Shown: piece after piece, positions 14,701 through 29,574 of the stretch
Layout of the letters: each line of letters begins with the position of its first letter
Numbering within the stretch: the first letter of the stretch is position 1
Source: Vicinamibacterales bacterium
GTDB taxonomy: Bacteria > Acidobacteriota > Vicinamibacteria > Vicinamibacterales > 2-12-FULL-66-21
Reading direction: 5' to 3'
NCBI GenBank assembly: GCA_035758845.1
Contig: DASTVZ010000178.1
Location: 34,713-98,712, forward strand
DNA length: 64,000 nt
Notes under the pieces: model-generated
Told to the model about the DNA's origin: nothing
The model's database searches: none
Seen by the model: only the letters and a program-made list of their open reading frames with translations
Program-made: the position numbers and the translations under genes

Positions 14701-15178
14701 CATCGTCTCCGGGCTTCGGCCGCTGAAGACGCGCAAGGGCGATCGCATGGCGGTGTTCATGCTCGACGACGTCGGCGGCGGCGTCGAAGTGGTCGTCTTT
14801 CCGGAAACCTTCAGCAAGTTTGGCTCACTCGTCGAAAACGATGCCATGCTGCTCGTGCGCGGCAAGCTCGAACGCGACGACGAGTCGGCGCGCATCGTCT
14901 CGACAGAGCTCATGCCCATCGCGTCGCTGAAAGAGAAGACGACGCGCGAGGTGGTGATTCATCTCGGGCAGGGAACGCAGGCACGAACGACGTTCGAAGC
15001 GCTCGCCGAGTTGTTCGCCCGGCATCGCGGCGACCGTCGCGTGTCGCTGGAGCTGGAGGTCACCGGTCCGCCTCCGATGCGTGTGCGTGCCGACGTCGCT
15101 CAGCGTGTGCGGCCATCAGAGAAGCTCGTGGCGGAAGTGGAGTTGATTTGCGGAGCCGGAACGGTGGAACTTCGGTGA
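11702..15178 (+). CDS. dnaE: DNA polymerase III subunit alpha
   Basis: 1158 aa. PHP N-terminus (FVHLHLHSEYSLLDG), polymerase core (PDIDIDF) and an OB-fold C-terminus. Confidence 0.97.
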   Translation: MSNFVHLHLHSEYSLLDGACRIEELLDRVAELKMPAVAITEHGNMFSSVIFHDQARKRGLNPILGCEVYVAPGDRRIKSGTPGETANHLVLLAESKTGYHNLIKLVSSGYTEGFYYKPRIDKELLAQHAEGLIGLSSCLKGEVATGIRTEQQQKAIAAAATYRDILGRQNFFLEMQYQGIDEQKTVNTGLLPIARDLGLSLVATNDVHYLQNSDFKPHDVLLCIGTGKSVNDAERLRYHGDQFYLKTTAEMAEVFKDHPDALANTVRIAERCHVDLSNAINHLPNFDVPAGFTLDDYFEHVVREGFGQRLPRLKGLAAAGVLSHTIDEYERRLTYEVDMIKKMKYPGYFLITWDFIRYAREQGIPVGPGRGSAAGSFVAYCLRITDVDPIEYDLIFERFLNPERVSLPDIDIDFCERRRGEVIDYVTQKYGRENVAQIITFGTMKARAVVRDVARVMDIPYADADRVAKAIPPALDMTLDKALEENPVLKDMEQKDERVKELLGVARRLEGMTRHASVHAAGVVIAPRPLTEFVPLYKSQKDEIVTQWAMKEVERMGLLKMDFLGLSTLTLICDARDEIRRTEGIDLDIDAIPLNDAKTFQLFCDGQTYGVFQFESSGMRELLRKAKPERLDDLIALNALYRPGPLKSGMVDDYISRKQGKTEVKYELPQLAPILEDTYGVIAYQEQVMRIAAVLAGFTMGQSDVLRKAMGKKDPKVMAKQREAFVSGAVKNGVSEKKATKIFDLMEFFAGYGFNKSHSTTYAWVAYQTAYLKANYPAHFMAALLTIEAANTDKLAMYLGECRELGVTILAPDINSSEMAFTVVHGGVRFGLCAVKNVGEGAIQSMLNVRREHGRIDSLYTLCEYADLRLVNKRVLESLIKAGALDSLVPAASGTVGGRRARLFAAVDKAIEHGGRHQRDREKGQSQLFGGSDDDSSSAAVPLPDAPAWAEIQQLAGEKEALGLYMSGHPLDRFTEELKTFGARRVADLTASEADIWVGGIVSGLRPLKTRKGDRMAVFMLDDVGGGVEVVVFPETFSKFGSLVENDAMLLVRGKLERDDESARIVSTELMPIASLKEKTTREVVIHLGQGTQARTTFEALAELFARHRGDRRVSLELEVTGPPPMRVRADVAQRVRPSEKLVAEVELICGAGTVELR

Positions 15179-15273
15179 AATGCTGAATGCTGATGTCTGA
15201 ATGCTGAATGTGGCAGTGTCTTTAGGCCATGCCACATCAGAAATCAACAATCAGCAATCAGCACTTTCAGAAT
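15179..15273. repeat. heptamer-armed long hairpin (AATGCTG)n ... (NNCAATC)n
   Basis: Left-arm heptads at 15179-15213. A perfect 7-bp apex stem TGTGGCA/TGCCACA (15209-15215 / 15230-15236). Right-arm heptads at 15239-15273. About 6 of 7 positions are complementary per heptad. Confidence 0.8.
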
Positions 15274-15280
15274 TGCACCT

Positions 15281-16270
15281 ATGCCTGACTTACTCGAATT
15301 CGAGGAACCCATCGGCGTCCTGCTGAAAGAGATCGAAGCGCTCAGCATGCTGCCGCGTACGCCCGACCGCGAACGTTCGATCGACTCGTTGCGCCGTCGC
15401 GCTGACGAGATCCGCGCGGAGTTGTACACGAATCTGACACCATGGCAGCGCGTACTGGTCGCGCGCCATCCGAATCGTCCGAACACGCTGGATTACATCG
15501 AGCGATTGTTTACCGGGTGGGACGAGCTCCACGGCGATCGCCGCTTCGCCGACGACCACGCGATCGTCGCCGGCCTTGCGCGATACCGTGACCAGCCGGT
15601 GGCCGTCATTGGCCATCAAAAAGGGGGCGACACCAAGCAGAAGATCTATCGCAACTTCGGCTACGCGCGGCCGGAAGGGTATCGGAAAGCCCTCCGCGTG
15701 ATGCAGCTGGCCCAGAAGTTCGCAAGGCCGATCATCGTCTTTATCGATACTCCCGCGGCGTACCCGGGTGTCGAATCCGAGGAGCGCGGCGTCGCCGAGG
15801 CGATTGCGTTCAATCTTCGCGAGATGATGATGCTCGAGGTGCCAATTGTCGTGCTCGTATGCGGCGAAGGCGGCAGTGGCGGGGCGCTTGGTATTGCGAT
15901 TGGCGATCGCGTCCTGATGCAGGAGTTTGCCGTCTATAGCGTGATTCCACCGGAAGGGTGCGCGGCGATTCTCTGGCGGGACGCCAACCGCAAGATCGAA
16001 GCCGCGGAGGCGTTGAAGATCACGGCACCCGATATGCTCGCGCTCGGTCTCATCGACGGGATCGTGCCCGAACCGACCGGTGGCGCACACAACAACCCGG
16101 ATGCCGCAACTGCGCTGGTCGATCAGGCGCTCTCAGCGGCGCTCCCGGAAGTAGCAGCGCTGTCGGTCGACGATCGGCTTCGCGTCCGTTACGACAAGTT
16201 CCGCAAGATGGGTGAGGAGCGCAGCTCCTTCCTGGATGCGAACGAGCCGCGGATGGAGCCGGCGCAGTGA
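15281..16270 (+). CDS. accA: acetyl-CoA carboxylase carboxyltransferase subunit alpha
   Basis: 329 aa with LDFEEPI, RHPNRP, FIDTPAAYPG and GEGGSGGALG motifs. Confidence 0.95.
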   Translation: MPDLLEFEEPIGVLLKEIEALSMLPRTPDRERSIDSLRRRADEIRAELYTNLTPWQRVLVARHPNRPNTLDYIERLFTGWDELHGDRRFADDHAIVAGLARYRDQPVAVIGHQKGGDTKQKIYRNFGYARPEGYRKALRVMQLAQKFARPIIVFIDTPAAYPGVESEERGVAEAIAFNLREMMMLEVPIVVLVCGEGGSGGALGIAIGDRVLMQEFAVYSVIPPEGCAAILWRDANRKIEAAEALKITAPDMLALGLIDGIVPEPTGGAHNNPDAATALVDQALSAALPEVAALSVDDRLRVRYDKFRKMGEERSSFLDANEPRMEPAQ

Positions 16271-16280
16271 CAATCCGCTG

Positions 16281-18002
16281 ATGAAGACTCTCCTGTGGCA
16301 TCACCTGCCGTGCAATGACGCCCAGGCGGCCACCCTTGCCGGCGCACTCGGCGTGCATCCGATCATCGCCCGACTGCTCTGTCTTCGTGGGTTCAGTAAC
16401 GTCGACGACGCGGCACGGTTTTTGAACCCGTCGCTGGATCAGTTACACGACCCGTTCCGGCTGGCGGACATGGACCGGGCCGTCGATCGGTTGGAGCAGG
16501 CACTCGCGCGCCGCGAGCGGATCGCGATCCATGGCGACTACGACGTCGACGGCATCACCTCGACGGTCATCCTTCGCCGCGCCCTCGAGATGCTCGGCGG
16601 TGACGTCGTCCATTTCATTCCTGAGCGACTGCGCGATGGATATGGCCTGCAGCGAGCCGCCATCGATCGACTTCATGGCGAACGCGTTGGTTTGATTGTG
16701 TCGGTCGACTGCGGAATCAGAAGTTCGGATGCCGCGGCCCGGGCGCGCGAGCTTGGCGTCGACCTCATCGTCACCGATCATCATGAACCCGACGGGACGT
16801 TGCCATCAGCGCTCGCGGTGATCAACCCGAAGCGCGCCGACTGCACCTATCCAGACAAGCATCTGGCCGGGGTTGGCGTCGCCCTCAAACTCGTCCAGGC
16901 GCTCTGCCACCGCGCCGGGAAAGGGAAGTGGCTGCCGGCATTCATCAAAGTCGCCGCAATTGGCACGCTCGCGGATGTCGTCCCGCTGGTCGGAGAGAAT
17001 CGCGTGATTGCGCGCCTGGGCCTGGCCTCGCTCAGTCGCGGGCCGCACACGATCGGCTTGCGGTCCCTGCTCGATGCGTCCGGCCTGAGCGGCAAGACAA
17101 TCGATAGTTACCAGGTGGCATTCATGCTGGCGCCTCGCGTCAATGCCGCGGGGCGTATGAGCACGCCGGACATCGCCACCCGCCTGCTGCTCGCGACCGA
17201 CGAAGCGATGGGAGAGGAAGCGCGCTCGCTCGCCCAACAGTTGAACGACGAGAATCTCCGGCGACAGCAGGAAGAGGCGGATCTCGTAGCGCAAGCTCGC
17301 AAGGCGATCGAAACCGACCCTGCCGTCGGCGCACATAACGTCCTGGTGGTCGGAGGAGATGGATGGCATCGCGGTGTGATCGGCATCGCCGCTTCGAAGC
17401 TCGTGGATACATTTCACAAGCCGGCCATTGTCCTGTCGGTGGAAGGCGAAGTGGCGCACGGATCCTGCCGAAGTATTCCTGACTTCGACATGCTCGCCGC
17501 GCTGGAGCATTGTTCCGACGTGTTCGTCAGGTTTGGCGGGCACAAACAAGCCGCCGGTCTGACAATGGAAGCCGCCCGCGTGCCGGAGTTCCGGTCGCGC
17601 ATAAATGCCTATGCCGACGACGTGCTCGAGCCGGATCAGCTGCGCCCACGTCTTCGGATCGACGGCCCGCTGAGCCTGCGCTCGATTACCCCGGACTTCA
17701 TGCGCGAGCTCGACACCATGGGTCCGTTCGGTATGGCGAATCCGCGGCCGGTATTTCACGCCTCAGGCGTCGAGATCGTCGACGGACCGCGGCCGCTCAA
17801 GGACCGGCATCTCAAGATGACCTTTTCGCAGGATGGACGGCGCTTTCGGGCGATCGCATGGCGTGCCGCCGAACGCGCCGACTTTCTCAATCAGAACCGA
17901 GCTGGCGTGAACCTCGCCTTCTCGCTGGAAAAGAACGAATTCCAGGGGGAAACGTATCTCGAGTTGTCCGTCGCTGACATCAAGAGCCTGAGCGACGGAT
18001 AA
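16281..18002 (+). CDS. recJ: single-stranded-DNA-specific exonuclease RecJ
   Basis: DHH motifs (IAIHGDYDVDGITS, VTDHH) and DHHA1 (GGHKQAAG). I trimmed the start to ATG 16281, just after the accA stop. The track ORF from 16212 overlaps accA. Confidence 0.9.
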   Translation: MKTLLWHHLPCNDAQAATLAGALGVHPIIARLLCLRGFSNVDDAARFLNPSLDQLHDPFRLADMDRAVDRLEQALARRERIAIHGDYDVDGITSTVILRRALEMLGGDVVHFIPERLRDGYGLQRAAIDRLHGERVGLIVSVDCGIRSSDAAARARELGVDLIVTDHHEPDGTLPSALAVINPKRADCTYPDKHLAGVGVALKLVQALCHRAGKGKWLPAFIKVAAIGTLADVVPLVGENRVIARLGLASLSRGPHTIGLRSLLDASGLSGKTIDSYQVAFMLAPRVNAAGRMSTPDIATRLLLATDEAMGEEARSLAQQLNDENLRRQQEEADLVAQARKAIETDPAVGAHNVLVVGGDGWHRGVIGIAASKLVDTFHKPAIVLSVEGEVAHGSCRSIPDFDMLAALEHCSDVFVRFGGHKQAAGLTMEAARVPEFRSRINAYADDVLEPDQLRPRLRIDGPLSLRSITPDFMRELDTMGPFGMANPRPVFHASGVEIVDGPRPLKDRHLKMTFSQDGRRFRAIAWRAAERADFLNQNRAGVNLAFSLEKNEFQGETYLELSVADIKSLSDG

Positions 18003-18186
18003 TGGAATTGCTGACTGTTGATTGCCGATTTGGCGCGGTCTAACCAGCCTTGGCCAAGGCTACGGCGGTCCGCGGAGCGCTTCGCGCGAAGGCGGAAGAC
18101 CGCGCCCTACAGCCATCAATCGGCAATGACATTCGACAATCGGCAATCACAGCAATCAGCAATCGACAATCAGCAATCAGCAATTC
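18003..18186. repeat. heptamer arrays (NGATTGC)x4 and (NNCAATC)x~10 flanking an inserted 79-bp element
   Basis: Left arm 18005-18032, right arm 18112-18186. The arms are mutually complementary in sequence family. Confidence 0.75.
18033..18111 (+). repeat. 79-bp structured repeat, copy 1 (closing stem GCGCGGTCT/AGACCGCGC)
   Basis: Near-identical to 53904-53980. Contains the 16-nt palindrome AGCCTTGGCCAAGGCT and a TCCGC...GCGGA stem. Confidence 0.8.
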
Positions 18187-18189
18187 TGA

Positions 18190-20376
18190 ATGTCCTGGCA
18201 ACGAAAAGCTCGCATCGCCATAGCCGCGTTCGTGATCGTCTTCATCGCGATCGTGGTCGTTGCCTTGCGTCAGCGTAAGGGGCCGCCACAGACCGCGGCC
18301 GTGCCCGAGCGGCGGGACAAAGACTGCATTCTCGAGAACACCCAGAGCGGTGAGGTGAAGCAGTCCAAAGACGGGAAGATTGTTTTTGCGATGAAGTTTG
18401 GCGCCCAGTGCAGCTACAACGATGGTCGCACACGACTCGGAAATGGCGTCGAGATTACATCGTTGAGAAATGGGAAACCGTTCACCGTCCGAAGCAACGA
18501 AGCGGAGGTGGTTCAGTCTGGCGAGGATTTGAAGACCGCTCATTACATCGGAGCGGTGAAGCTGACGAGCGAGGGGACGGAAGTCACGACCGACGATGCC
18601 ACCTACGATCACCAGGCCGGACTACTTAAAGCGCCTGGACCGGTGGCGTTCACGCGTGGGCGGATGCATGGAAGCGGCGTCGGCGCGACATACGATTTCA
18701 ACCGCGAAGTGCTCTGGCTGCTCGCGCAGCCTCACGTCACAGTGACGCCCGACGAGAAGGGTCAAGGCGCGATCGATGCCACGGCTGAATCGATTGGCCT
18801 GGCGAAAGCCGAACACTATCTGAAACTGACGCGCAGCGCACACATCAATGCCGAAGGACGCGTCATTGATGCCGATGAGATCATGATCCTGCTGACCCAG
18901 GACGATCAGCGCGTCCAGGTGCTGCAGCTTCGCAACAACAGCCGCATCACCAGCTCGGGGGACGGCGGCCCCCAGTCGATGGCCGCTCGCGATATCGACC
19001 TGACCTACGGCGACGACGGCCGCACGCTGCAGCACTCGCACCTGGTCGAGAACGCCGTCGTGCAACTACCCGGCGAAGCCAACGGAGCCGGAAAGCGGGT
19101 CGCCGGGAAAACGATCGACATGTCGATGTCGCCAGATGGCAAGACGTTAACCAGTCTCGACGCGGTGGAGAACGTCGAGGTCGATCTGCCGCCGGATGGC
19201 GATTCGCCCGCGAAGCGTATTCGTTCAGCCACGTTGAACGCGACCGGAGCACCGGGAACAGGGCTGCAGAACGCGACGTTTGGCGGCAATGTCGAGTATC
19301 GCGAGACTCGAGCCGCACGGGGCACTCTGCCGGCCGTCGATCGACAGGCACGCGCGGTGACCCTGGTCATTACGACCAAGCCCGGGTTTGGTGCGGTCGA
19401 ACAGGCGGACTTTCGCGGCAACGTGCACTTCACGGATGGTCCGCAGGTCGCGGCGGACGCGACCCACGCCTTGTACCATGTCGAGAAAGACCAAATCGAT
19501 CTGTCGCCGTCGCAGGATCCGGGGCCGTCGGCGCCGCGAGTGAGCGACGGCCGGGTCACCGTCGAAGCGCGGGCCATCGAGTTCTCGATTGCCTCGAGAA
19601 AGCTGAAAGCGGACACAAAAGTGCGCACCTCGATGCTGCCGCAGAAGGGGGCAGATGGGGGTCAATCCGGGGTCAAACCGGGGTCAGACCAGGGTCAGAC
19701 CCCAACACGCGTGCCGGCATTGTTGCAGCAGGACCAACCCGTCACCGTCACGTCCAACCGGCTCGAGTACGATGGACTCGCCGGCCACGCCGTCTACATT
19801 GGAAACTCCCGGTTGTGGCAGGGCGCGACCAAAGTGAACGCCGACACGATCGTCGTCGACGACAAAACCGGCAACCTCGAGGCACGCGTCAACGTGCACA
19901 CTGAAATGATGATGGACGACGTCGATCCGAAGACCAACGTCCGAAAGAGCACGCCGTCGACGGGAGAATCGGAAACATTCCTGTACGATGACGCGAAACG
20001 GCTCGCGACCTACACCACCAAGGCGCACATGATCGGTTCGGAAGGGGACGTCGCTGCCGAAAAACTTGAACTCTATTTGAAGAAGGACGTGAATGAGCTC
20101 GAGCGCGTCGAAGGATACGGCGCCAATGGTTCGGTGATAGTGAAGGAAGGAGGTCGGATCGCAACTGGCGCTCGTCTCACGTATCTGTCGAAGGACCAGA
20201 CCTATCACATGACCGGAACACCCGTGGAGGCGATCGAAATCGCTCCAAACGACTGCAAGAAGTCGGTCGGTGCCACATTGACCTTCCAGCGCGCGGTCGA
20301 CTCCATCACCATGAAGGGGCCAAATCTACTCAGGTCCGTGCAGCAGTCAATCGCGTGTCCAACGGAGACGCGGTAG
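18190..20376 (+). CDS. membrane-anchored LptC/LptA (OstA-like) multi-domain protein
   Basis: N-terminal TM anchor (IAIAAFVIVFIAIVVVAL) followed by repeated OstA-type strands (A.D.A.Y..., FRGNVHF, FGGNVEY, NADTIVVDDKTGNLEARVNVH). Sits 4 nt upstream of lptB, in the lptC-lptA slot. Confidence 0.7.
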   Translation: MSWQRKARIAIAAFVIVFIAIVVVALRQRKGPPQTAAVPERRDKDCILENTQSGEVKQSKDGKIVFAMKFGAQCSYNDGRTRLGNGVEITSLRNGKPFTVRSNEAEVVQSGEDLKTAHYIGAVKLTSEGTEVTTDDATYDHQAGLLKAPGPVAFTRGRMHGSGVGATYDFNREVLWLLAQPHVTVTPDEKGQGAIDATAESIGLAKAEHYLKLTRSAHINAEGRVIDADEIMILLTQDDQRVQVLQLRNNSRITSSGDGGPQSMAARDIDLTYGDDGRTLQHSHLVENAVVQLPGEANGAGKRVAGKTIDMSMSPDGKTLTSLDAVENVEVDLPPDGDSPAKRIRSATLNATGAPGTGLQNATFGGNVEYRETRAARGTLPAVDRQARAVTLVITTKPGFGAVEQADFRGNVHFTDGPQVAADATHALYHVEKDQIDLSPSQDPGPSAPRVSDGRVTVEARAIEFSIASRKLKADTKVRTSMLPQKGADGGQSGVKPGSDQGQTPTRVPALLQQDQPVTVTSNRLEYDGLAGHAVYIGNSRLWQGATKVNADTIVVDDKTGNLEARVNVHTEMMMDDVDPKTNVRKSTPSTGESETFLYDDAKRLATYTTKAHMIGSEGDVAAEKLELYLKKDVNELERVEGYGANGSVIVKEGGRIATGARLTYLSKDQTYHMTGTPVEAIEIAPNDCKKSVGATLTFQRAVDSITMKGPNLLRSVQQSIACPTETR

Positions 20377-20379
20377 GAC

Positions 20380-21105
20380 GTGGCCACACTGCACACCGCA
20401 GACCTCACCAAGTCATACAGCGGACGCACCGTGGTGAAGGGCGTGAACCTCGATGTCTCGTCCGGCGAGGTCGTGGGCCTTCTCGGTCCGAACGGCGCCG
20501 GAAAGACGACGACATTTTCAATGGTCGTCGGGTTGACGGCACCTGATTCCGGTCGTGTCCTGCTCGACGGGGCCGATGTGACCGACGATCCAATGTACGT
20601 CCGGGCCCGAAAGGGCATCGGCTATCTGCCGCAGGAAGCATCGATCTTTCGCGGCCTTAGCGTCGAGGACAACATTACGGCGATTCTCGAAACGCTTCCG
20701 CTCGATTCCGCCAGCCGCCGCAATCGGAGAACAGAACTGCTCGCCGAGCTCGGCCTGACGCCGCTCGCGAAGGCGCCAGCCTACACCCTGTCCGGCGGCG
20801 AACGGCGCCGGGTCGAAATCACTCGCGCGCTCGTCGTCTCACCCAAGATCATGCTCCTGGACGAGCCGTTCGCCGGGATCGATCCGATCGCCGTGACCGA
20901 CATCCAGAAGATCGTGTTTCATCTCAAGGAGCGGGGAATCGGTGTACTGATTACCGACCACAACGTGCGGGAAACACTCAGGATAACGGACCGCGCGTAT
21001 ATCGTGCATGACGGCGTCATCTTCCGCAGTGGAACTCCGGCCAGCCTCGCCGCCGACGAGGAGGTGAAGCGGATTTACCTCGGCTCGGAGTTCCGATTGG
21101 ACTAA
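20380..21105 (+). CDS. lptB: LPS export ABC transporter ATP-binding protein LptB
   Basis: 241 aa. Walker [10 protein letters not shown], signature LSGGERRR, and the conserved lptB-rpoN synteny. Confidence 0.93.
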
Positions 21106-21139
21106 GATTGGAAGGGACGGACACGGCCCCACTCGACTA

Positions 21140-22579
21140 ATGGCGATTCAGCAGAAGCTCCACACCAAGCTCGTTCAAAAGCTCATCCTTACTCCATCGC
21201 TGCAGCAGGCGATCAAGCTGTTGCCGATGTCGACGCTCGAGCTCGCGGAGCTGCTGAACCAGGAAATGGTCGAAAATCCGCTGCTCGAGGAGGTGCCGAC
21301 TGAGGAACTTCAGCCGGCAGAGCAACAGCAGCAACAGGAAAAAGCGGCGGACCAGCAGCCGGCCGACAAGGGCGATCCCTGGGACGATGCCGACTACGAG
21401 TACTTCTTCGGAGACTATCTCGACGACGGCTATCGCTCCCGCACCCCATCCGAGGTCAAGGAGCTGCCGCCGATCGAGAACACACTCTCGACGGCGGCTT
21501 CACTCTCCGACCATCTGCTCTGGCAACTCTCCCTCCAAACAGACGACGAACGGCTCAAGGAGATCGGCGGCGCGATTATCGGCAATCTCGACGACGATGG
21601 ATATCTGGTCGCGTCGGTCGAAGAAATCGCGGCAATGGGGGAGTGGCCCGTCGCCGATGTCGAACGCGCATTGCAGCACGTACAGACGTTCGATCCGATC
21701 GGTGTCGCCGCGCGTGATCTGCAGGAGTGTCTCTGGCTCCAGATTCGGCATCTCGGTCTCGAGGGCACACCGACCGAGAAGATCGTCACCGAACACCTCC
21801 GACTTCTCCAGAACCATCAGGTTCCTGAAATCGCGAGGAAGCTCGGCATCTCGCTCGACGACTTGAAGGAACACGTCGAAATCATTCGCAACCTGGATCC
21901 CAAGCCGGGAAGCCGCTACAACCCCTCGCAGTCACAGTACGTCATTCCGGATGTGTACGTCGTCAAGGTTGAGGATCAGTACGTCGCCGCGTTGAATGAG
22001 GAAGGATTGCCGCAGCTGCGGATCAGTCCGGTCTATCGGCGGCTGCTCGACAAGACCGGCGCCGGTGGCGGAGAACAGAACGACGAGACGCGCGCCTATG
22101 TGAAGGACAAATTCCGATCGGCGCTCTGGTTGATCAAGTCGGTCGATCAGCGGCAGAAGACGATTCACAAGGTCGCGACCAGTATCATCAATTTTCAACG
22201 CGAGTTTCTCGATCACGGGATCGAGTATCTGCGGCCGCTCGTGCTTCGTGACGTGGCCAACGACATCGGCATGCACGAATCGACGGTCAGCCGCGTCGTC
22301 AACAACAAGTACATGCACACGCCGCAAGGCGTCTTCGAGCTGAAATACTTTTTCCACAGCGGGATCAGCAGCTCGTTCGGCGAGAGCGTCTCGTCGGTCA
22401 CCATCAAACAGCGGATCCGCAAGATCATCGAGAACGAGGATCCGCGCAAGCCGTTGAGCGACTCGAAAATCGTGAGCATCCTCCAGAAAGAGGGTCTGAT
22501 GCTTGCCCGCCGCACCATCGCGAAGTATCGCGAGGAGCTGAAGATTCCAACATCGAACCAGAGAAAAGTGCTTTTCTGA
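21140..22579 (+). CDS. rpoN: RNA polymerase sigma-54 factor
   Basis: 479 aa. N-terminal Gln-rich region I and the RpoN box ARRTIAKYR near the C-terminus. Confidence 0.95.
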   Translation: MAIQQKLHTKLVQKLILTPSLQQAIKLLPMSTLELAELLNQEMVENPLLEEVPTEELQPAEQQQQQEKAADQQPADKGDPWDDADYEYFFGDYLDDGYRSRTPSEVKELPPIENTLSTAASLSDHLLWQLSLQTDDERLKEIGGAIIGNLDDDGYLVASVEEIAAMGEWPVADVERALQHVQTFDPIGVAARDLQECLWLQIRHLGLEGTPTEKIVTEHLRLLQNHQVPEIARKLGISLDDLKEHVEIIRNLDPKPGSRYNPSQSQYVIPDVYVVKVEDQYVAALNEEGLPQLRISPVYRRLLDKTGAGGGEQNDETRAYVKDKFRSALWLIKSVDQRQKTIHKVATSIINFQREFLDHGIEYLRPLVLRDVANDIGMHESTVSRVVNNKYMHTPQGVFELKYFFHSGISSSFGESVSSVTIKQRIRKIIENEDPRKPLSDSKIVSILQKEGLMLARRTIAKYREELKIPTSNQRKVLF

Positions 22580-22659
22580 GCTCTCAGCTATCAGCTCTCA
22601 GCTGTCAGCAGCACGCGGCGGCTGTGAGCTGAAAGCTGACGGCTGACAGCTGATAGCTT
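22578..22659. repeat. heptamer-armed hairpin (CAGCTNT)n / (GCTGANN)n
   Basis: Left arm 22585-22612 and right arm 22621-22658, with the right arm the reverse complement of the left. It fills the rpoN-hpf spacer. Confidence 0.85.
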
Positions 22660-22662
22660 CTT

Positions 22663-23187
22663 ATGCGACTCGATATAACCGGCCGGCACGTGGAGATCAC
22701 CGCTCCCGTGCGGCAGCTGATAACCAGACGTTTTTCCCGCCTCGAGCGTCTCCTGAACGACGCGGCCGTCTCCGCAATCATCACGCTGACGAAAGAGAAG
22801 TACCGTCTGCGCACGGAGATTGCCGTTCACACCAAAGGGGACCACGTGCTCCGCGGGAACGGTGAAGGGAACGCGTGGCCGATCTCGATCCGCCAGGCGA
22901 CGCAGAAGATCGAGCAGCAGGCGCAAACGTTGAAGGGCAAGTGGGATGGCCGCAAACGTACTGCGGCTCCGCGTGTCGTTCGGCCCGCGCCTGGTGAAGC
23001 GGCTTCGGCGCCGCGTATTGTCAGGAACGCGCGGTACGCCGTGAAACCGATGTCACTCGAAGACGCGGCGCTGCGGGTCGACGGCGAGGGAGACAACTTC
23101 GTCGTGTTTCGGAATGCTGAAACCGACGCCGTCAGCATTTTGTATCGCCGAAAAGACGGAAATCTCGGGCTGATCGAGCCGGAGTAG
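22663..23187 (+). CDS. hpf: ribosome hibernation promoting factor, long form
   Basis: 174 aa. The N-terminal sigma-54 modulation/S30EA domain (ITGRHVEIT) and a C-terminal dimerisation domain (VVFRNAETDAVSILYRRKDGNLGLIE). Confidence 0.9.
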   Translation: MRLDITGRHVEITAPVRQLITRRFSRLERLLNDAAVSAIITLTKEKYRLRTEIAVHTKGDHVLRGNGEGNAWPISIRQATQKIEQQAQTLKGKWDGRKRTAAPRVVRPAPGEAASAPRIVRNARYAVKPMSLEDAALRVDGEGDNFVVFRNAETDAVSILYRRKDGNLGLIEPE

Positions 23188-23244
23188 TTCCCGCGACGAA
23201 CGATCGGGAACCGATTTCGTGCAGATTCACGTAGCATTGCCGCG

Positions 23245-24231
23245 ATGACCGAAACCGCCCAGCCGCGGGGCGTCACCGTCGCAACGATCCTTCGAGATGT
23301 CTCGGATTCCGGCGCTTTCGATCTCGAACTGCTTGCCGGGCACTCCGGGCTCGAACGGCTGATCACCATTCCGCACACGCAGAAAACGGGCCTCGCTCTC
23401 TCCGGGTTCGATGCCTACCTTCGTCCCGGCCGTGTGCTCGTGTTCGGCACGAGCGAAGTGCGATATCTCGAAACCCTGACCGCTGAGGAACGCGCCGTGG
23501 CCCTGCGACGAGTATTCAGCCACGAGCTTCCATGTCTGCTCGTCACCGGAGGCGCCTCGCCGCCCCCTGAAACCATCGCCGAAGCCGACCGCGCCGCCGT
23601 GCCGCTGCTGCGGTCGCGAACGCCGACGCCGGAAGCCATCTCGAGACTTTCGTCAGTCCTCGATGCGCATCTCGCCGCGCGCGGTGTGGTCCACGGCGTC
23701 CTGATGGACATCCTCGGTCTTGGCGTGCTCGTGGTCGGCGAAAGCGGTATCGGAAAGAGTGAATGTGCGCTGGACCTGGTCGTCCGTGGCCACCGGCTTG
23801 TCGCCGACGACGTGGTCGAACTGCGATGCCGGGCGCAATCGTTCCTGATCGGAACATGTCCCGAGTTGACGCGGAACCACATGGAGATTCGCGGGCTTGG
23901 GTTAATCAATGTGCAGGATCTCTTTGGCGTCGCATCGACGCGATCGTCGAAGCGCGTCGAACTGGTCGTCCAACTGGAACGATGGGAGCACGGCCGGGAA
24001 TACGATCGCCTCGGCGTTGACGACGAATCCTACGAAACACTCGGCGTGCGCATTCCAATGATTCGGATGCCGGTCGCTCCAGGACGCAACGTCGCGATTC
24101 TCGTCGAAGTGGCGGCGCGTAACCAACTGCTGCGCGTGCGCGGCCACCATGCGGCGCGCAAGCTCGTGACCCGCCTGAACGACCAGCTTGCCGGCCGCGG
24201 GCAGGATGTCGACATAGGAGAAGACCATTGA
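23245..24231 (+). CDS. hprK: HPr kinase/phosphorylase
   Basis: 328 aa. Walker A GESGIGKSE, LVADD, and MEIRGLGLINV, typical of HprK. Confidence 0.9.
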   Translation: MTETAQPRGVTVATILRDVSDSGAFDLELLAGHSGLERLITIPHTQKTGLALSGFDAYLRPGRVLVFGTSEVRYLETLTAEERAVALRRVFSHELPCLLVTGGASPPPETIAEADRAAVPLLRSRTPTPEAISRLSSVLDAHLAARGVVHGVLMDILGLGVLVVGESGIGKSECALDLVVRGHRLVADDVVELRCRAQSFLIGTCPELTRNHMEIRGLGLINVQDLFGVASTRSSKRVELVVQLERWEHGREYDRLGVDDESYETLGVRIPMIRMPVAPGRNVAILVEVAARNQLLRVRGHHAARKLVTRLNDQLAGRGQDVDIGEDH

Positions 24232-25145
24232 TGCGAGAGAAGCGCCACGCTGCGAGGCGCGCCGCTCGCACGGCGGTGACCTCCCGCTTCGTCGTGCTGA
24301 CGGGTCTTTCCGGATCGGGAAAGTCGCAAGCGATCCGCGCGCTCGAGGATCTCGGCTACTTCTGCGTCGATAACCTGCCGGTGACGCTCTTGCCGATGCT
24401 CGCCGAACTCACGCTGAGGGCTGGGACGGAGATTTCCCGGGCTGCCGTTGTCGTCGACGTGCGCGAAGGGAAGATGCTGAAAGAGTTTCCGGGCGTCTAC
24501 CGTCGCTTGAAGGCGCGGAAGAACCTGAATCCGGTCCTGATCTTCCTCGAGGCGGCGGAGCCTGCGCTCGTGCGGCGATTCAGCGAGACGCGCCGGCCAC
24601 ACCCGCTGGCACCCGATCGATCGGCGATCGAAGGAATCCGGGAAGAGCGCGACGCCATGCGCGCCATTCGAAAGCTGGCCGATCACGTCATCGACACGAC
24701 CGAGATGACGGTTCATGAACTGCGACATGTCTTCACCGGGGTGGCGGCCGGCAGCACCCCTGGATCGCAGCTTGTCGTCACGATTCTAAGCTTCGGGTTC
24801 AAGCACGGCATTCCCGTCGACTCGGATCTGCTTTTTGACGTGCGCTTTCTTCCCAATCCGCATTTCGTTCCCGCCCTGCGGCCCTATACGGGACGAGATG
24901 CGGAAGTCGCTCGCTATCTCGATCGTTCCAGCGCCACCCACGAATTCCTGGATCACACACTCAATCTGCTGAAATTCCTGATTCCGCAGTACGCTCACGA
25001 AGGAAAGACGTATTTGACTATCGGGATCGGATGCACCGGCGGGCGCCATCGGTCGGTGGCGATCGCGGAGGCACTGAGAAAGGGACTCGCGGGGATTCCT
25101 GGCGTGCGTCTTCGGGTGAAGCATCGGGATATTGCGAATGAATAG
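24228..25145 (+). CDS. rapZ: RNase adapter protein RapZ (YvcJ/YhbJ family)
   Basis: 305 aa with GLSGSGKS, FGFKHG, DVRFLPNP and CTGGRHRSV motifs. Confidence 0.92.
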   Translation: MMREKRHAARRAARTAVTSRFVVLTGLSGSGKSQAIRALEDLGYFCVDNLPVTLLPMLAELTLRAGTEISRAAVVVDVREGKMLKEFPGVYRRLKARKNLNPVLIFLEAAEPALVRRFSETRRPHPLAPDRSAIEGIREERDAMRAIRKLADHVIDTTEMTVHELRHVFTGVAAGSTPGSQLVVTILSFGFKHGIPVDSDLLFDVRFLPNPHFVPALRPYTGRDAEVARYLDRSSATHEFLDHTLNLLKFLIPQYAHEGKTYLTIGIGCTGGRHRSVAIAEALRKGLAGIPGVRLRVKHRDIANE

Positions 25146-25265
25146 ACGTCGTCTAAGTGGGACAAGGCGCGCCACGGGCGCGCCCGCCGGAGCGGAGCGG
25201 GGCGTTGGGGCCCCGCGAGCGAAGGCGTGGGGGGTCCGCGGGGGCGAAGCCCCCCGGATCAGAAC

Positions 25266-25697
25266 ATGAAGCTGGGCATTGTCGTCGTGACCCACGGCCA
25301 ACTGGCGACCGAACTCGTCAATTCTGCTGAGATGATCGTCGGCGATCTGCCGCATTTCGCGGCGGTCTCCATCGGATGGCACGAGGATGTCGACCACGCG
25401 CGAGAGGGGATCGGCGCCGCGATCGCTCGGGTTGGCGCGTCGGCCGGCGCGACTGACGAGGAGCCGGCCAAGGTACTCGTGCTGACTGATATGTTCGGCG
25501 GGACGCCTGCGAACCTGGCGGTCACGTTCGTCAGCGAACATGTCGAGGTGATTACCGGGGTCAACCTGGCGATGTTGATTAAGCTCGCGCGGCCGCAGAA
25601 GTTCGCGGATCTCGCATCGCTCGCGCGCGACATGCGCGAGCATGGCCGGAACGCCATCTGGGTCGCCTCGGATCTGCTGAAGGGCGAGAAGGCGTGA
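25266..25697 (+). CDS. PTS EIIA component, mannose class
   Basis: MKLGIVVVTHGQLA, with the phosphorylatable His, is typical of EIIA-Man. I trimmed the start to ATG 25266 because the upstream part of the track ORF lies in a GC hairpin region. Confidence 0.8.
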   Translation: MKLGIVVVTHGQLATELVNSAEMIVGDLPHFAAVSIGWHEDVDHAREGIGAAIARVGASAGATDEEPAKVLVLTDMFGGTPANLAVTFVSEHVEVITGVNLAMLIKLARPQKFADLASLARDMREHGRNAIWVASDLLKGEKA

Positions 25698-25705
25698 CAC
25701 GATGT

Positions 25706-25969
25706 ATGGTCACCATACTGAACCCACTCGGGCTTCATGCCCGCGCGGCGGCACGGTTCGTTCACGCCGCCAGTGGTTTCGCGTGCCGCATCAAGGTCGG
25801 CCGCGGTGGCCGCGAAGTTGACGGGAAAAGCATCATGGGACTGCTGCTGCTTGCTGCCGCGAAGGGCAGCGAAATCACGATATTGGCGGATGGACCAGAC
25901 GAGGAGGCGGCCGTGGCGGCGCTCTGCGCGTTGATCGAGCGCGGTTTGGACGAAGCGCCATGCGTCTGA
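25706..25969 (+). CDS. ptsH: phosphocarrier protein HPr/NPr
   Basis: MVTILNPLGLHARAAARFV (His15 context) and GKSIMGLLLLAA (Ser46 context, the HprK target). Confidence 0.85.
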   Translation: MVTILNPLGLHARAAARFVHAASGFACRIKVGRGGREVDGKSIMGLLLLAAAKGSEITILADGPDEEAAVAALCALIERGLDEAPCV

Positions 25970-27705
25970 CCGGCCTCGGCGTATCCCCCGGCATCGGCAT
26001 CGGCAAAGCGCTCGTGCTGCGTCGCGGTGCGCGCGATTTCCGATTCCGCATTCCAGCCGCCCGGATCGAGCGCGAAATCGAACTGCTCGCCGAAGCGCGC
26101 GCTCGCTCACGCGAGCAACTGCAACAGATCCGGCAGCGGATCGCGCAATCGGCCGGTGTCGAGCACGCGTATCTGTTCGACGCGCAACTGCTCATGCTCG
26201 ACGATGCGATGTTGATCGACCGGGCGGTTGAAATCATTCGCACCGAACAGCTGAATGCGGGATCGGCGCTGGAACGCGCGTTTTCGGAGATCTCGGCGGT
26301 GTTCGATCAGGGTGAAGACGCGTATCTCAAAGAGCGACAGGGAGACGTCGGTGACGTCGTTGGCCGTCTCTGCATGAACCTTCGCACCGGAGGAGATCCG
26401 CTCGAGGTGTTCAAAGATCTCGAAGGCCCACTGGTGCTTGTCGCCGACGAGTTGACGCCTTCGGTGATCGCCCAGCTCGATTGGCAGCGTTTCTCGGCGT
26501 TTTTGACCGATGGCGGCAGCTGGACGTACCACACGGCGATTCTCGCCAGATCGATCCAGGTGCCGGCGGTGGCCGGCCTGCGCACCGCAAGCAGCGTGAT
26601 TGCCCCGGGTGCTCTAATCGCCGTCGACGGCGCGAGTGGCGAGGTGTTCGTCGATCCGGATCCGGCGACGCTCGAGCACGTCCGGACACGGCAGCAGCGC
26701 CGCGAAAAATTCGAACAGTCGCTCGACGAGTATCGGCGCCTGCCGCCAGTCACCGAAGATGGCGTTCAGATCCGGCTCGAAGCTAACGTCGAGTCTCCCG
26801 ACGACGCGATGCGGGCGCGCGAGGCGGGCGCCGAGGGCATCGGCCTCTTCCGATCGGAGTTTCTGCTCGCGTGGGGCGGACACGCGGCGTTGACCGAAGA
26901 AACACAGTTCGCGGCCTACACGCGCCTCGTCGAGAGCATGGCGCCGGGCCGGGTCACGATCCGCACATTCGACATCAGTGAGGGGCAGCTGCCCGTCGAC
27001 ACGCCTGACGCCGATGGCGCGCGCGCGCCGCTTGGACTGCGCGGTGTCCGGCTGAGCCTGGCGATGGACGACGTGTTTCAGGCGCAGCTTCGCGCGTTGC
27101 TGCGCGCGGCGGCGCACGGACCTCTGCGGATCATGTTTCCGTTCGTGTCAGGCGTCGATGAACTTCGCGAGGCGCGCGCAGCCGTCGTGCGCGCCGCCGA
27201 GACTCTTCGCGCCCGCGGCATCGGCATACCTCCTGTGCCCATTGGCGTGATGATCGAGGTACCGTCGGCGGCAGTGACAGCCGATCTGCTCGCGGAGCAC
27301 GCGGACTTCTTCAGCATCGGCACCAACGACCTCATTCAGTACTGCTTGGCGGTCGATCGCACCGACGAGCGGGTGTCCAATCTGTATGAACCGCTCCATC
27401 CTGCCATCGTGAGAATGCTTCGGCTCGTCGCGCGTGCGGCGCGCCGGCGCGGCATCCCGGTGTCGGTGTGCGGCGAGATGGCCGCCGATCCGATCGTGCT
27501 GACACTGCTCGTGGGACTGGGTCTGACCGAATTCAGCATGGCGCCAACCGCCGTGCCTCTGGCCAAACAGGCGTTGCGCGGACTGAGCGCCGCCGAGGCG
27601 ACACGAATGGCAGCCCGGACGCTGCGCGCACACACCGCGTCCGACGTCGAGAAGCTGCTGGCGGAATTCATGTCGACGCGAATGAAAGTAGGGCCGCGGC
27701 TGTAA
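25960..27705 (+). CDS. ptsI: phosphoenolpyruvate-protein phosphotransferase (PTS Enzyme I)
   Basis: 581 aa. GGSWTYHTAILARS (active-site His) and the PEP-utilising TIM-barrel motifs FFSIGTNDLIQY and VCGEMA. Confidence 0.92.
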   Translation: MRLTGLGVSPGIGIGKALVLRRGARDFRFRIPAARIEREIELLAEARARSREQLQQIRQRIAQSAGVEHAYLFDAQLLMLDDAMLIDRAVEIIRTEQLNAGSALERAFSEISAVFDQGEDAYLKERQGDVGDVVGRLCMNLRTGGDPLEVFKDLEGPLVLVADELTPSVIAQLDWQRFSAFLTDGGSWTYHTAILARSIQVPAVAGLRTASSVIAPGALIAVDGASGEVFVDPDPATLEHVRTRQQRREKFEQSLDEYRRLPPVTEDGVQIRLEANVESPDDAMRAREAGAEGIGLFRSEFLLAWGGHAALTEETQFAAYTRLVESMAPGRVTIRTFDISEGQLPVDTPDADGARAPLGLRGVRLSLAMDDVFQAQLRALLRAAAHGPLRIMFPFVSGVDELREARAAVVRAAETLRARGIGIPPVPIGVMIEVPSAAVTADLLAEHADFFSIGTNDLIQYCLAVDRTDERVSNLYEPLHPAIVRMLRLVARAARRRGIPVSVCGEMAADPIVLTLLVGLGLTEFSMAPTAVPLAKQALRGLSAAEATRMAARTLRAHTASDVEKLLAEFMSTRMKVGPRL

Positions 27706-27714
27706 GGAGAACAT

Positions 27715-28068
27715 GTGCCTGAACAAGTGACAAAAGTCGATAAACCCTGGGGTTACGAACTGCATTGGGCCAAGACCGAGCGCTATGTCGGCAAGGTGAT
27801 TCACATCAACGCTGGCCACGCGCTCAGCCTTCAGTACCACAATCAGAAGGATGAAACGATCTACCTGGCGTCCGGCCGGATGCTCTTTGAGATCAAAGAA
27901 GGCGATGAACTCGTCAAGCGCGAGATGAAGCCTGGCGACGCAGTCCACGTGACGCCGAAGACCGTCCACCGCATGACCGCGATTACCGATTGCGATGTCT
28001 TCGAAGTTTCGACACCCGAACTTCACGACGTCGTCCGCCTCGAGGATCGCTACGGCCGTACGACGTAA
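27715..28068 (+). CDS. cupin domain protein (type II phosphomannose-isomerase C-terminal-like)
   Basis: 117 aa. KPWGYE...SLQYHNQKDET...VHRM cupin motifs. GTG start with AAGGAGA upstream. Confidence 0.7.
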   Translation: MPEQVTKVDKPWGYELHWAKTERYVGKVIHINAGHALSLQYHNQKDETIYLASGRMLFEIKEGDELVKREMKPGDAVHVTPKTVHRMTAITDCDVFEVSTPELHDVVRLEDRYGRTT

Positions 28069-28130
28069 TCACAACATTCGACACCGATCGATGTGGCAGA
28101 AACCGCGCCGCCGATTGGTAAATATGTAGA

Positions 28131-28160
28131 TTGACGCGAGAAACGCGCACGTCACACAAT
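28131..28160 (+). promoter_or_regulatory. weak promoter candidate for ssb (TTGACG-18 nt-CACAAT)
   Basis: Hexamers read by eye only. A TGACG...CGTCA inverted repeat lies in the spacer. Confidence 0.3.
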
Positions 28161-28175
28161 GGCGCGACTTTTGTT

Positions 28176-28207
28176 AATTGGTGAATTGGTGGATCGGTGA
28201 ATTGGTG
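28176..28207. repeat. octamer tandem repeat (AATTGGTG)x4, one copy GATCGGTG
   Basis: Read directly. Lies just upstream of the ssb start. The partial complement TCACAACATTCGACACCGATC sits at 28069-28089. Confidence 0.75.
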
Positions 28208-28215
28208 AGGCTTCG

Positions 28216-28647
28216 ATGGGCAGTGTGAACAAAGTAATCCTGGTTGGAAATCTCGGGCGCGATGCCGAGCTTCGTTATACGCCGGGCGGCGCACCGGTTG
28301 CGACTTTGAGCCTCGCGACAACGGAGATGTGGAACGACAAGGCCGGGCAGCGTCAGGAAAAAACCGAGTGGCACCGTGTCGTCCTCTGGGGAAAGACGGC
28401 CGAGAGCCTGAACGAATACCTGATGAAGGGAAAGCAGATCTACGTCGAAGGCAAGCTGCAGACGCGCGAGTGGACCGACAAGGACGGCACGAAGCGTTAC
28501 ACGACGGAAATCCGCGGTGATCGGGTCGTGCTGCTCGGCGGCGGCGGAGGAGGTGCGCGTCAACAGCCTCGCGCGGCGGCAGCGCCGGCCGAGGAGCACA
28601 TGGGGGAGCCCGTCTCCGAATTGACGGACGACGATATTCCGTTTTAA
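28216..28647 (+). CDS. ssb: single-stranded DNA-binding protein
   Basis: OB fold ([31 protein letters not shown]), a Gly-rich linker and the acidic tip DDDIPF. Confidence 0.95.
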
Positions 28648-28656
28648 CTGACCGAG

Positions 28657-29511
28657 CTACTTTCTATTCAGCGCGTCTAATCGCTGCTTCGCAAGGAAGG
28701 CCTCCGGCGCAGCGGGGTATTTCTGCATCACCGTCTCGAACGCACGGCGCGCGAGATCCGGTTGCTTCAGATCGTTGTAGGTGACACCAAGCTTGTAGTA
28801 CGCGACCGGAATACTGTCGCTATTCGGGTAATTCGAAATCACCTTCTGATAGGCGTCGATCGCTTCGCGTTGTTTTCCCGCCCCGTAGTACGCATTGCCG
28901 ATGTTCAGCTGTGCGTCGTCTGCCTTGTCCGACTTCGGAAAGCTCGCGATATACGCATTGAATCCCTGAATGGCAATGTCGAACTGCCCGCCCGCATAGT
29001 CGCTGTAGGCGTTGTCGTACATCCGCTGGGGCGAGATGAACGGCGCTGATCCAGGCGGTGTGGTTGGCACCGGCGCGGCTGCGGTTGGGGCGGCACCAGG
29101 CTCACCGGTGGGAGACGGTTCGGCTCCAGGAGCTGGCGGCGGAACCTGCGCCGTCGGCATCGACGACATCGCCTGCCGGACAGCCTCGAGCTCCTGCGAC
29201 ACCGTCGAGAGACGAACATTCGTATCGTCGGCTTTCTCGCGGAGCACTCTCACTCCATCTGCGACATTGTCGACTTGCAGCTTTTGATCGGCGAACGACT
29301 TCCTGTTCGCCGCTGTTTGATCGTCGATCTTCGTCGAGACGGTCTTGAGCGTTTCCGCAAGCATCCCCATCATCTGCTGAAGCTGCTGTTGCTGCTCCTG
29401 CAACATCCTGATCTCGGCCATCAGCTGCTGGTGTGCCTTGTCAGCCGCAGCGGCCGGCGACGCGCCAACGAGCACCAGCACTGCAGCAACCGTCAATGCA
29501 CTTTGTTTCAT
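28657..29511 (-). CDS. cpoB: Tol-Pal system protein CpoB/YbgF (coiled coil plus TPR)
   Basis: Signal peptide from MKQSALTVAAVLVL, a Gln-rich coiled coil and C-terminal TPRs. It is the last gene of the tol-pal operon. Start trimmed to ATG 29511. Confidence 0.8.
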   Translation of the reverse strand: MKQSALTVAAVLVLVGASPAAAADKAHQQLMAEIRMLQEQQQQLQQMMGMLAETLKTVSTKIDDQTAANRKSFADQKLQVDNVADGVRVLREKADDTNVRLSTVSQELEAVRQAMSSMPTAQVPPPAPGAEPSPTGEPGAAPTAAAPVPTTPPGSAPFISPQRMYDNAYSDYAGGQFDIAIQGFNAYIASFPKSDKADDAQLNIGNAYYGAGKQREAIDAYQKVISNYPNSDSIPVAYYKLGVTYNDLKQPDLARRAFETVMQKYPAAPEAFLAKQRLDALNRK

Positions 29512-29574
29512 ATGCGCGCCTCGAACAGCGTGAACCCACGGCAACGTGGAGATAGCATCAACACCCAAAATGGA

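Follow-up and report, generated by a model that had tools for sequence, protein, structure and literature searches.

The window analysed here is a 64-kb stretch of DNA from a Vicinamibacterales bacterium (Acidobacteriota), and the element in question is a hairpin of tandem heptamers lying between its rpoN and hpf genes. The rpoN open reading frame (ORF) occupies positions 21140-22579 of the plus strand and encodes the sigma-54 AID, CBD and DBD domains recognized by Pfam. The hpf gene starts with ATG at 22663 on the same strand and encodes a long-form HPF, in which Pfam finds a Ribosomal_S30AE domain and the C-terminal domain; the gap from stop to ATG is 83 nt. The inverted-repeat arm begins on the final base of the rpoN stop codon TGA (22577-22579, plus strand). 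The left arm (22579-22612, plus strand) consists of about four to five units TCAGCTN and reads AGCTCTC AGCTATC AGCTCTC AGCTGTC AGCAGC. It is followed on the same strand by a GC apex of 8 nt, ACGCGGCG (22613-22620), which in the minimum-energy fold forms a short GC helix closing a 4-nt loop, and by the right arm (22621-22658), made of about five units GCTGANN (equivalent to NAGCTGA) and reading GCTGTGA GCTGAAA GCTGACG GCTGACA GCTGATA GCT. The right arm is the reverse complement of the left one except at the variable unit position, and it stops 4 nt short of the hpf ATG; the remaining TCTT together with the start codon (22659-22665, plus strand) contains neither a Shine-Dalgarno-like motif nor a U-tract.

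Tandem Repeats Finder (TRF) located period-7 arrays at 22575-22609 (5.0 copies) and 22627-22658 (4.6 copies), and the complementarity of the arms was 84% over 31 nt, or 92% over 24 nt. The plus-strand RNA fold of the hairpin had an energy of -48.8 kcal/mol (z = -5.05), which none of 200 shuffled sequences equalled, the minus-strand RNA fold reached -50.7 kcal/mol (z = -6.6), and the plus-strand fold with DNA parameters gave -27.3 kcal/mol (z = -4.3). The helix is composed of 6-bp blocks with a 1x1 mismatch at each seventh position. A preliminary description of this DNA, made from the letters of the window, had read the spacer as a hairpin built from complementary tandem-heptamer arrays that should fold better than shuffled sequence; its coordinates and units proved correct throughout, base by base, and the TRF arrays, the arm complementarity and the fold, far better than that of the shuffles, all agree with it. 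Rfam covariance models gave no match at gathering score over the whole window. The head-to-tail 7-nt units, present in at least three copies according to TRF, are those of a heptanucleotide simple sequence repeat (SSR) or short tandemly repeated repetitive sequence (STRR), and the occurrence of the same heptamer in two nearby convergent arrays capable of forming a stem-loop is that of the arrays known from Xanthomonas. The rpoN-hpf element is best filed as a heptanucleotide SSR/STRR palindrome, one of an order-wide population, which is real, statistically strong and typical of the lineage.

This population was characterized in a sample formed by the window and the loci found by means of RpoN, amounting to 1.46 Mb spread over 81 genomes rather than to any single complete genome. 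The RpoN search yielded 80 loci with 81-99% amino acid identity, nearly all from metagenome-assembled genomes (MAGs) labelled Vicinamibacterales or Acidobacteriota. In noncoding DNA (127 kb) TRF detected 172, 62 and 16 arrays at periods 7, 14 and 21, respectively, compared to 72, 17 and 21 in the 1.33 Mb of coding DNA; noncoding periods other than 7 and 14 gave at most 43 arrays each, the number found at period 9. A custom detector assigned 6,590 of 95,124 intergenic bases (6.9%) to period 7 and no more than 1% to each other period from 4 to 11. The intergenic bias and the period-7 excess by which SSRs and STRRs are recognized were thus found across the sample. The window itself showed the lag-7 excess that the preliminary description had anticipated for intergenic DNA, identity at this lag in its short spacers being 0.358 versus 0.260 ± 0.008 in dinucleotide shuffles (z = 11.5), with further signals at lag 14 (z = 7.4) and lag 21 (z = 4.7); its coding DNA contained no lag-7 signal, only a period of 3. 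The heptamers are highly diverse (CCAGCTT, AATGCTG, CCGGGAT, GGGGATT, GGCGATT and dozens more), and therefore the 7-nt step, not the motif, is the constant feature.

Pairing of arrays is common, since a complementary array, detected on its own, lies within 150 nt of 93 of the 233 noncoding arrays (about 40%), which corresponds to 58 inverted pairs. At a permissive threshold arms of two, three, four, five and six units were counted 43, 85, 98, 46 and 13 times, with a mode of 4. Arrays are found in 18% and 13% of spacers in the two co-directional classes, in 21% of convergent and in 8% of divergent ones. The first array begins a median of 6 nt past the upstream stop and the last one ends a median of 18 nt ahead of the next start; the median co-directional spacer measures about 100 nt with arrays and 37 nt without, so that the element fills an otherwise tiny gap and abuts both genes. 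Variation within units is focused on one or two adjacent positions (share 0.58 versus 0.44 expected, p = 1e-11). Two sites share a heptamer family in 16.5% of cases within the same genome versus 5.2% between different genomes (p = 3e-8). The copy numbers of the two arms are weakly correlated (r = 0.17), and a comparison of upstream with downstream arms, as a test for a directional process, revealed no systematic difference in purity or copy number. The order of unit variants was mirrored between arms at 82.1% versus 78.2% after unit shuffling, an excess to which little weight is given because the choice of the stem biases the value upward. Among the longest elements are a 446-nt spacer (L019, 247-692) consisting almost wholly of GGGATTG/CAATCCC units, with a fold of -257 kcal/mol, and two hairpins between recJ and lptC that measure 200-250 nt (L013, 6737-6987; L020, 6804-7005).

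The comparison of orthologous spacers showed how variable this site is. In 67 relatives the rpoN-hpf spacer measures 0-121 nt; 31 of the 67 carry period-7 arrays, and about 20 are shorter than 20 nt and unstructured, which means that the gene pair can do without the hairpin. Four loci (L010, L013, L034 and L037) possess one arm only. The lptB-rpoN spacer contained arrays in none of 79 cases, and those of dnaE-accA and recJ-lptC in 34% and 27% of the relatives, respectively, with quite different heptamers and always complementary arms. The latter two spacers sometimes hold long palindromes not made of heptamers instead; in the dnaE-accA spacers of L003, L004 and L005 these are near-perfect, with purine-rich arms such as GGAGGAGGGGAGAAGGAGAG. 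At rpoN-hpf the units are variants of the core YCAGYTN, namely type A (TCAGCTN), type B (CCAGCTT) and type C (CCAGTTN). In 21 hairpins the fraction of C at core position 1 of the left arm predicts the complementary state of the right arm with r = 0.90 (p = 3e-8), and the same prediction holds at core position 5 (r = 0.90, p = 2e-8), so that the covariation of the arms which the preliminary description had proposed to look for is present at both variable core positions. The three unit types are interleaved across at least three clades defined by the flanks and are thus not the product of a single inherited event. Since hardly any of them are met in these genomes outside the rpoN-hpf site, they evolve in place and not by transposition; dispersed A, B and C families swapping by transposition were rejected on the same ground.

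Turnover could be followed at closer range in 15 additional loci (L081-L095), obtained by a metagenome scan for the hpf start and by look-up of exact RpoN/Hpf proteins; L083 is the contig of L088. One of them, L084, carries the exact type A allele of the window, the 3' part of its rpoN being 99.6% and its hpf 100% identical to those of the window. A type C allele of 112 nt, identical in all its carriers (L086, L088-L090, L093-L095), is flanked by sequences 97-98% identical to the window, and type B alleles (L081, L087, L091) by sequences 94-95% identical. When the window was compared with L083, identity per 100-nt bin was 92-100% over 5.6 kb (mostly 97-98%), and in the spacer bin it was 0.59. 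L086, too, is 97-98% identical to the window over this length and diverges in the spacer bin. Three mutually unalignable hairpin haplotypes, with units TCAGCTN, TTCCAGC and CCAGTTN, occur on contigs encoding identical RpoN, and their distribution is discordant with the flank tree. Smaller steps were found as well: L092 differs from the common type C allele by the loss of exactly one left-arm TGCCAGT unit and by one single-nucleotide change in the loop, and L085 has at least one CTCTCAG unit more than the window. The instability of unit number between close relatives that marks SSRs and STRRs is therefore present (L092 versus L086; L085 versus the window), and alleles one 7-nt unit apart (L092 and L086) bear out the slippage-prone DNA that was among the roles proposed in the preliminary description. 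Mosaic arrays of A and B or of B and C units are frequent (L005, L001, L081, L010).

This pattern of alleles may reflect concerted evolution at a very high rate, an exchange limited to the hairpin, or a long-lived polymorphism. It is tempting to speculate that rpoN-hpf is a multi-allelic hairpin cassette locus, the haplotypes of which would be maintained or regenerated by a dedicated, sequence-independent DNA process that measures 7 nt and copies from arm to arm, a proposal that we consider rather improbable as it stands. If it were true, the 7-nt-measuring process would be a general basis of heptamer arrays in Acidobacteriota, Xanthomonas and cyanobacteria, and the cassette locus would possibly be under diversifying or balancing selection on the hairpin.

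The explanation that we favour, as probable by a modest measure, is that heptamer arrays are generated and homogenised at the level of DNA and that the stem-loop in the transcript, resembling that of repetitive extragenic palindromic (REP) sequences, is incidental. Replication slippage in 7-nt steps gains and loses units, as the segregating one-unit alleles and the perfect arrays of seven to nine copies show. New unit variants spread along an arm and the opposite arm takes the complementary change, in agreement with the covariation described above. The arms would be kept matched either by intrastrand or fork template switching or by the loss of poorly paired palindromes. The accumulation just 3' of stops, in co-directional and convergent spacers and more rarely in divergent ones, would mark the places where such elements are tolerated. 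The predicted transcript stem-loop, of about -49 kcal/mol, would start at the rpoN stop and end 4 nt short of the hpf ATG. Its likely effect would be REP-like: it would hinder 3' exonucleases and make the expression of hpf somewhat independent of that of rpoN. Such an effect on the mRNA 3' end belongs to the general biology of REP sequences.

The main rival of this explanation, less probable in our judgement and on the whole unlikely, is that selection acts on the hairpin as an RNA element of the transcript from rpoN and hpf, for which heptamers would be an easy way to obtain a long stem; it could act as a terminator or insulator lacking a U-tract, as an RNase III or other processing site, as a stabiliser of the rpoN 3' end or as a device for translational coupling by drawing the rpoN stop close to the hpf start. 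The strong fold and the covarying arms are what such an element would show, and so is the position right after stops with depletion in divergent spacers. In favour of it are also the unrelated hairpins found at the same boundaries in other species and the roles proposed for cyanobacterial repeats (PMC2670836). The base-pair mismatches, however, do not bear the mark of RNA. Because the arms were aligned by DNA complementarity alone, G·U pairs had no advantage, and on the sense strand of 62 co-directional hairpins G·T and A·C mismatches each numbered 71, next to 1,596 Watson-Crick positions. Since RNA structure should tolerate G·U better, and G·U is no commoner than A·C, selection on the sense-strand RNA is not supported; the ratio of 71:71 argues against strong RNA-level selection only, as selection on single pairs may be weak in long stems. 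The orthologous spacers of less than 20 nt, the unalignable alleles on contigs encoding identical RpoN, the loci with one arm and the weakly correlated copy numbers of the two arms likewise speak against a selected RNA.

The role as a terminator, also among those put forward in the preliminary description, was not borne out. The hairpin resembles a Rho-independent terminator in being a GC-rich stem-loop directly after a stop codon and differs from it in the length of the stem, about 30 bp with periodic mismatches versus 5-15 bp, and in the lack of a U-tract; with the tail TCTTATG, a Rho-independent terminator was rejected at rpoN-hpf. T-rich tails are missing from the class in general, the next 10 nt after 64 co-directional hairpins being 23% T and containing six or more T in 3%. 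A scan for consensus terminators gave 14 matches versus 17.0 ± 3.9 in shuffled sequence for positions 10001-30000 and 26 versus 16.3 ± 4.9 for positions 30001-50000 (about 2 standard deviations above); there was no clear enrichment over the shuffles, and no heptamer hairpin qualified as a whole. The genome does use canonical terminators, because a clear example is found at 44358-44388 of the minus strand, between a GntR-family gene and the downstream minus-strand gene. With a 13-bp GC-rich stem and a TTTTTTT tail, it is the sole convincing canonical intrinsic terminator seen. The rpoN-hpf element is non-essential to the gene pair, and neither a terminator nor a conserved regulatory RNA is a suitable annotation for it; the spacers in general are hypervariable and are not to be taken for conserved regulatory RNAs.

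The rpoN-hpf hairpin was also described as the archetype of a class, and this view holds, as the design recurs across the window and the order Vicinamibacterales. Among the eight other sites named at that time, six fold strongly (11646, 15179, 18003, 39382, 42205 and 49905; z from -4.7 to -7.1), the site at 46170 folds weakly (z = -2.1), and 37558-37698 folds no better than shuffled sequence. Comparison spacers lacking a period-7 array (n = 11, 57-194 nt) gave z values from +1.2 to -3.7. The flanking genes are unrelated housekeeping genes (guaA/dnaE/accA, recJ and an lptC-lptA fusion, rpoN/hpf, parB and an lptF-lptG fusion). On the plus strand, the member in the guaA-dnaE spacer (11646-11701) has TGCGGAT/ATCCGCA arms and a fold of -31.8 kcal/mol (z = -7.1), that in the dnaE-accA spacer (15179-15273) AATGCTG/ATCAGCA arms (z = -4.7), and that in the recJ-lptC/A spacer (18003-18186) arms of the ATTGCTG/CAGCAAT type with a structured centre between them (z = -6.9). 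The largest member of the window (39385-39627, plus strand), directly 3' of parB, comprises a perfect (GCTGGCT)x9.1 array on the left and (GGAGCCN)x11 on the right and folds with -149 kcal/mol (z = -6.3). At the site that does not fold, a perfect (TGGCTGC)x7.3 array lies 3' of the bifunctional-nuclease gene (37557-37607, plus strand), and its partner arm (37650-37698) is degenerate, the fold of 37553-37700 remaining at the level of shuffles (z = -0.7). Between this element and parA (37812) there is a near-consensus sigma-70-type promoter, TTGACA-17-TACAAT (11/12), at 37747-37775; its downstream position assigns the heptamer element 37557-37698 to the 3' end of the transcription unit that precedes it, a location that also favours a selected RNA.

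A further family of the window is built on CGGGATC. Its members are a hairpin 3' of lptF/G with CGGGATC/GATCCCG arms (42208-42293, plus strand, z = -5.7), one in a divergent spacer (49911-50003, z = -5.6) and the weaker one 3' of a minus-strand tyrosine-recombinase gene (46170-46251), the last two being given without strand; runs of three G are present in the family (42208, 46170, 49911). The hairpins at 42208-42293 and 49911-50003 have in common the irregular arms TCGGGATCCGTTGTNCGGGATCCGGGATCCG ... ACGGATCCCGGACNCCGGATCCCGGCAG, and their loops are unrelated. The common irregular arm includes a CGTTGTN interruption and is also seen at 46170-46251. These irregular arms suggest copying or gene conversion between dispersed sites.

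A further rival takes the hairpins for mobile elements of a non-autonomous kind, of the type of REP doublets forming hairpins (REPINs) or of miniature inverted-repeat transposable elements, with arms recognized by a transposase encoded elsewhere and families inserting into permissive spacers and replacing each other there. We regard this as improbable for the class. It would account for the threefold commoner sharing of heptamer families within a genome, for presence, absence and replacement at one site among close relatives, and for the irregular arms of 42208 and 49911 with their unrelated loops, which recall the spacers of REPINs (PMC3337134). The rpoN-hpf spacer of two relatives (L028, 11432-11529; L035, 11432-11536) contains a GTAG-tagged, perfectly paired 35-bp palindrome, TTTGTAGGCCCGACCTTCAGGTCGGGCGTGCTC ... 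followed by its inverted copy, with a fold of -74.5 kcal/mol. This palindrome looks like a genuine REPIN-type element, which is another point for mobility, and the same spacer would then take a second, unrelated kind of palindrome; because it occupies the same spacer, REPINs and heptamer hairpins are distinct kinds. The heptamer hairpins are like REPs and REPINs in being extragenic palindromes in short spacers after genes, with conserved arms, variable spacers and genome-specific families. They differ in that their arms are tandem heptamers changing by 7-nt slippage, not a fixed palindrome of 20-40 nt, and in having no GTAG/CGTC tag. At rpoN-hpf (22579-22658) there is neither such a tag nor a target-site duplication, the 20 scanned window ORFs, flanking the hairpins, include no transposase and no gene for a REP-associated tyrosine transposase, and the only recombinase among them, a tyrosine recombinase, belongs to the phage-integrase family. 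Membership of the rpoN-hpf hairpin in the REPINs was rejected on the lack of a tag and of a transposase among these 20 ORFs. As to dispersed copies, the window contains no second TCAGCTN array, other families have two to three copies per 64 kb, and the sharing of families within a genome is elevated. Across genomes the great majority of AGCT-type units are those of the rpoN-hpf site, which points to descent in place; unit mosaics and single-unit changes are the behaviour of slippage and not of transposition.

The last alternative, which we hold to be very improbable, treats the inversion as secondary and the arrays as a platform for a protein binding about 7 nt per subunit (for example an RNA-binding domain of cold-shock or S1 type or a DNA-binding nucleoid protein) or for non-B DNA such as a G-quadruplex. 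A conserved core of 5-6 nt with one or two free positions per heptamer and a preferred array length of about four units would suit it, and similar proposals have been made for TAACTGA repeats (PMC4679880) and G-rich heptamers (PMC4692102). A single sequence-specific binder does not fit, because dozens of unrelated heptamers occur, even in one 64-kb window, and the four-unit mode is also seen in units that are not G-rich. For the rpoN-hpf element a G-quadruplex was rejected, TCAGCTN having no G-tracts. An integron attC site was rejected as well, since the ends of the element are GCTCTCAGC and GATAGCTTCTT, not RYYYAAC ... GTTRRRY, and the flanks are housekeeping genes; a CRISPR reading was rejected from the sequence.

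Several observations weigh against the DNA-level generation and homogenisation of arrays that we favour. Concentration of variation at one or two positions of the heptamer is unlike pure neutral slippage, and the number of copies per arm peaks at 4 and shows no monotonic fall from 2. Unrelated hairpins (heptamer, REPIN-like and unique palindromes) are found at the same gene boundaries across species, and their recurrence is just as compatible with selection for a hairpin at these places; given the long stems, the equal counts of G·T and A·C may leave room for weaker RNA-level selection. Template switching from arm to arm is an analogy drawn from quasipalindrome mutagenesis, a process known from E. 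coli, and its operation here would have to be presumed. The position-concentrated variation, the four-unit peak, the sharing of families within genomes and the arms of 42208 and 49911 are hints in view of which the rival explanations by mobile elements, gene conversion and protein binding still have to be considered.

The statement in the preliminary description that no such class had been described was wrong, as comparable elements were reported from Xanthomonas, a GC-rich diderm (PMC4692102), and as STRR hairpins from cyanobacteria (PMC2670836). Rehm et al. (2015) found 186 and 183 arrays of the GGGAATC type in two Xanthomonas genomes, about 90% of them intergenic and rare between divergent genes, the mean distance to the ORF next to the 5' side of the repeat being 28 nt; the mode was four units, 70 and 75 convergent inverted pairs had stem-loop potential, and no function was found (PMC4692102). 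The likeness to these arrays of X. campestris and X. axonopodis is considerable. It includes the GC-rich diderm host, 7-nt units in which a conserved core is combined with variable positions, the mostly intergenic location near an ORF, the four-unit mode, the many convergent pairs, the variability of length and sequence between close relatives and the rarity between divergent genes. The Xanthomonas arrays nevertheless form essentially one G-rich family, read via G-quadruplexes, whereas Vicinamibacterales have dozens of heptamers, most of which are not capable of forming a G-quadruplex, and TCAGCTN is not a G-rich unit of the GGGNATC kind. The G-quadruplex rationale for Xanthomonas is weakened because the four-unit mode also holds in units without that capacity. 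Covariation of the arms and replacement of alleles within a species were not reported there, and the host phylum of the Vicinamibacterales arrays is Acidobacteriota.

In cyanobacteria 7-bp STRRs form hairpins between genes, for instance between hupS and hupL, and roles in transcript stability, translational coupling and termination were suggested (PMC2670836); in Nostoc inverted pairing is limited to a few of the GGGGA(C/T)T arrays (PMC4692102). Common to the STRRs and the present arrays are the 7-bp tandem units, several families per genome, the intergenic location and the hairpins between co-transcribed genes. The differences lie in the few paired arrays of Nostoc versus about 40% in Vicinamibacterales, and in the STRR hosts, which are of low GC content and belong to another phylum. 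Full-text literature searches on heptamer repeats of acidobacteria or Vicinamibacter gave no match. What is new relative to the published class is the phylum, the breadth of heptamer families, a paired architecture independent of G content, the covariation, the strand-symmetric mismatches and the turnover within a species.

Other repeats and unusual genes were noted in the window. Two adjoining unrelated arrays, AATCACT/AATCGTG and GCCAGCA, lie at 32855-32957 and are not complementary to each other; GCCAGCA is of the family that, read as the reverse complement, forms the TGGCTGC arrays at 37557 and 39410. A lone (TTTCCCT)x4 array at 30161-30208, between two minus-strand genes, is followed by the short GC hairpin GCTCGCCGCAGGCGAGC. 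Among the few intergenic arrays of the window not made of heptamers is the 8-mer AATTGGTG, present four times at 28176-28208, directly upstream of the gene 28216-28647 and without an inverted partner. The 16-nt direct repeat TACCAGTATGCTAGTA (1.9 copies, 42304-42334) extends into the beginning of the gene for a GntR-family regulator (42327-42713) and appears operator-like. The ORF at 18190-20376 encodes an apparent lipopolysaccharide-transport fusion of 728 amino acids with LptC and LptA/LptD_N domains, in the poorly conserved linker of which the 11-nt repeat GGGGTCAAACC occurs four times (19658-19701). A protein of 794 amino acids with two LptF_LptG stretches (39820-42204) is an apparent fusion too. 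Coding repeats were seen at the N-terminus of the minus-strand ORF 58168-58680, where a 9-nt unit specifies VPR/VPG tripeptides (58626-58673), and in the minus-strand ORF 61388-62017, where a CGG x30 tract (61610-61700) specifies poly-proline.

Throughout the class the 7-nt step, arms of about four units, inverted pairing and the position 3' of a stop are constant, whereas the sequence of the repeat and its G-richness are not. The dominance of heptamers among the long SSRs of many free-living bacteria is a standing question, STRRs being an old observation and the excess having been reported in 2007. As summarised in PMC4679880, Mrazek et al. (2007) found the heptanucleotide to be the commonest long-SSR category in most genomes, and they suggested that 7 nt matches the stretch held by the DNA polymerase, an idea based on slippage. 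Vicinamibacterales are a rich natural experiment in this respect, with dozens of unrelated heptamers in one and the same architecture, hundreds of related MAGs and spacers that are empty, one-armed or fully paired, and the data presented here make possible comparative tests of polymerase slippage, palindrome processing and RNA function.

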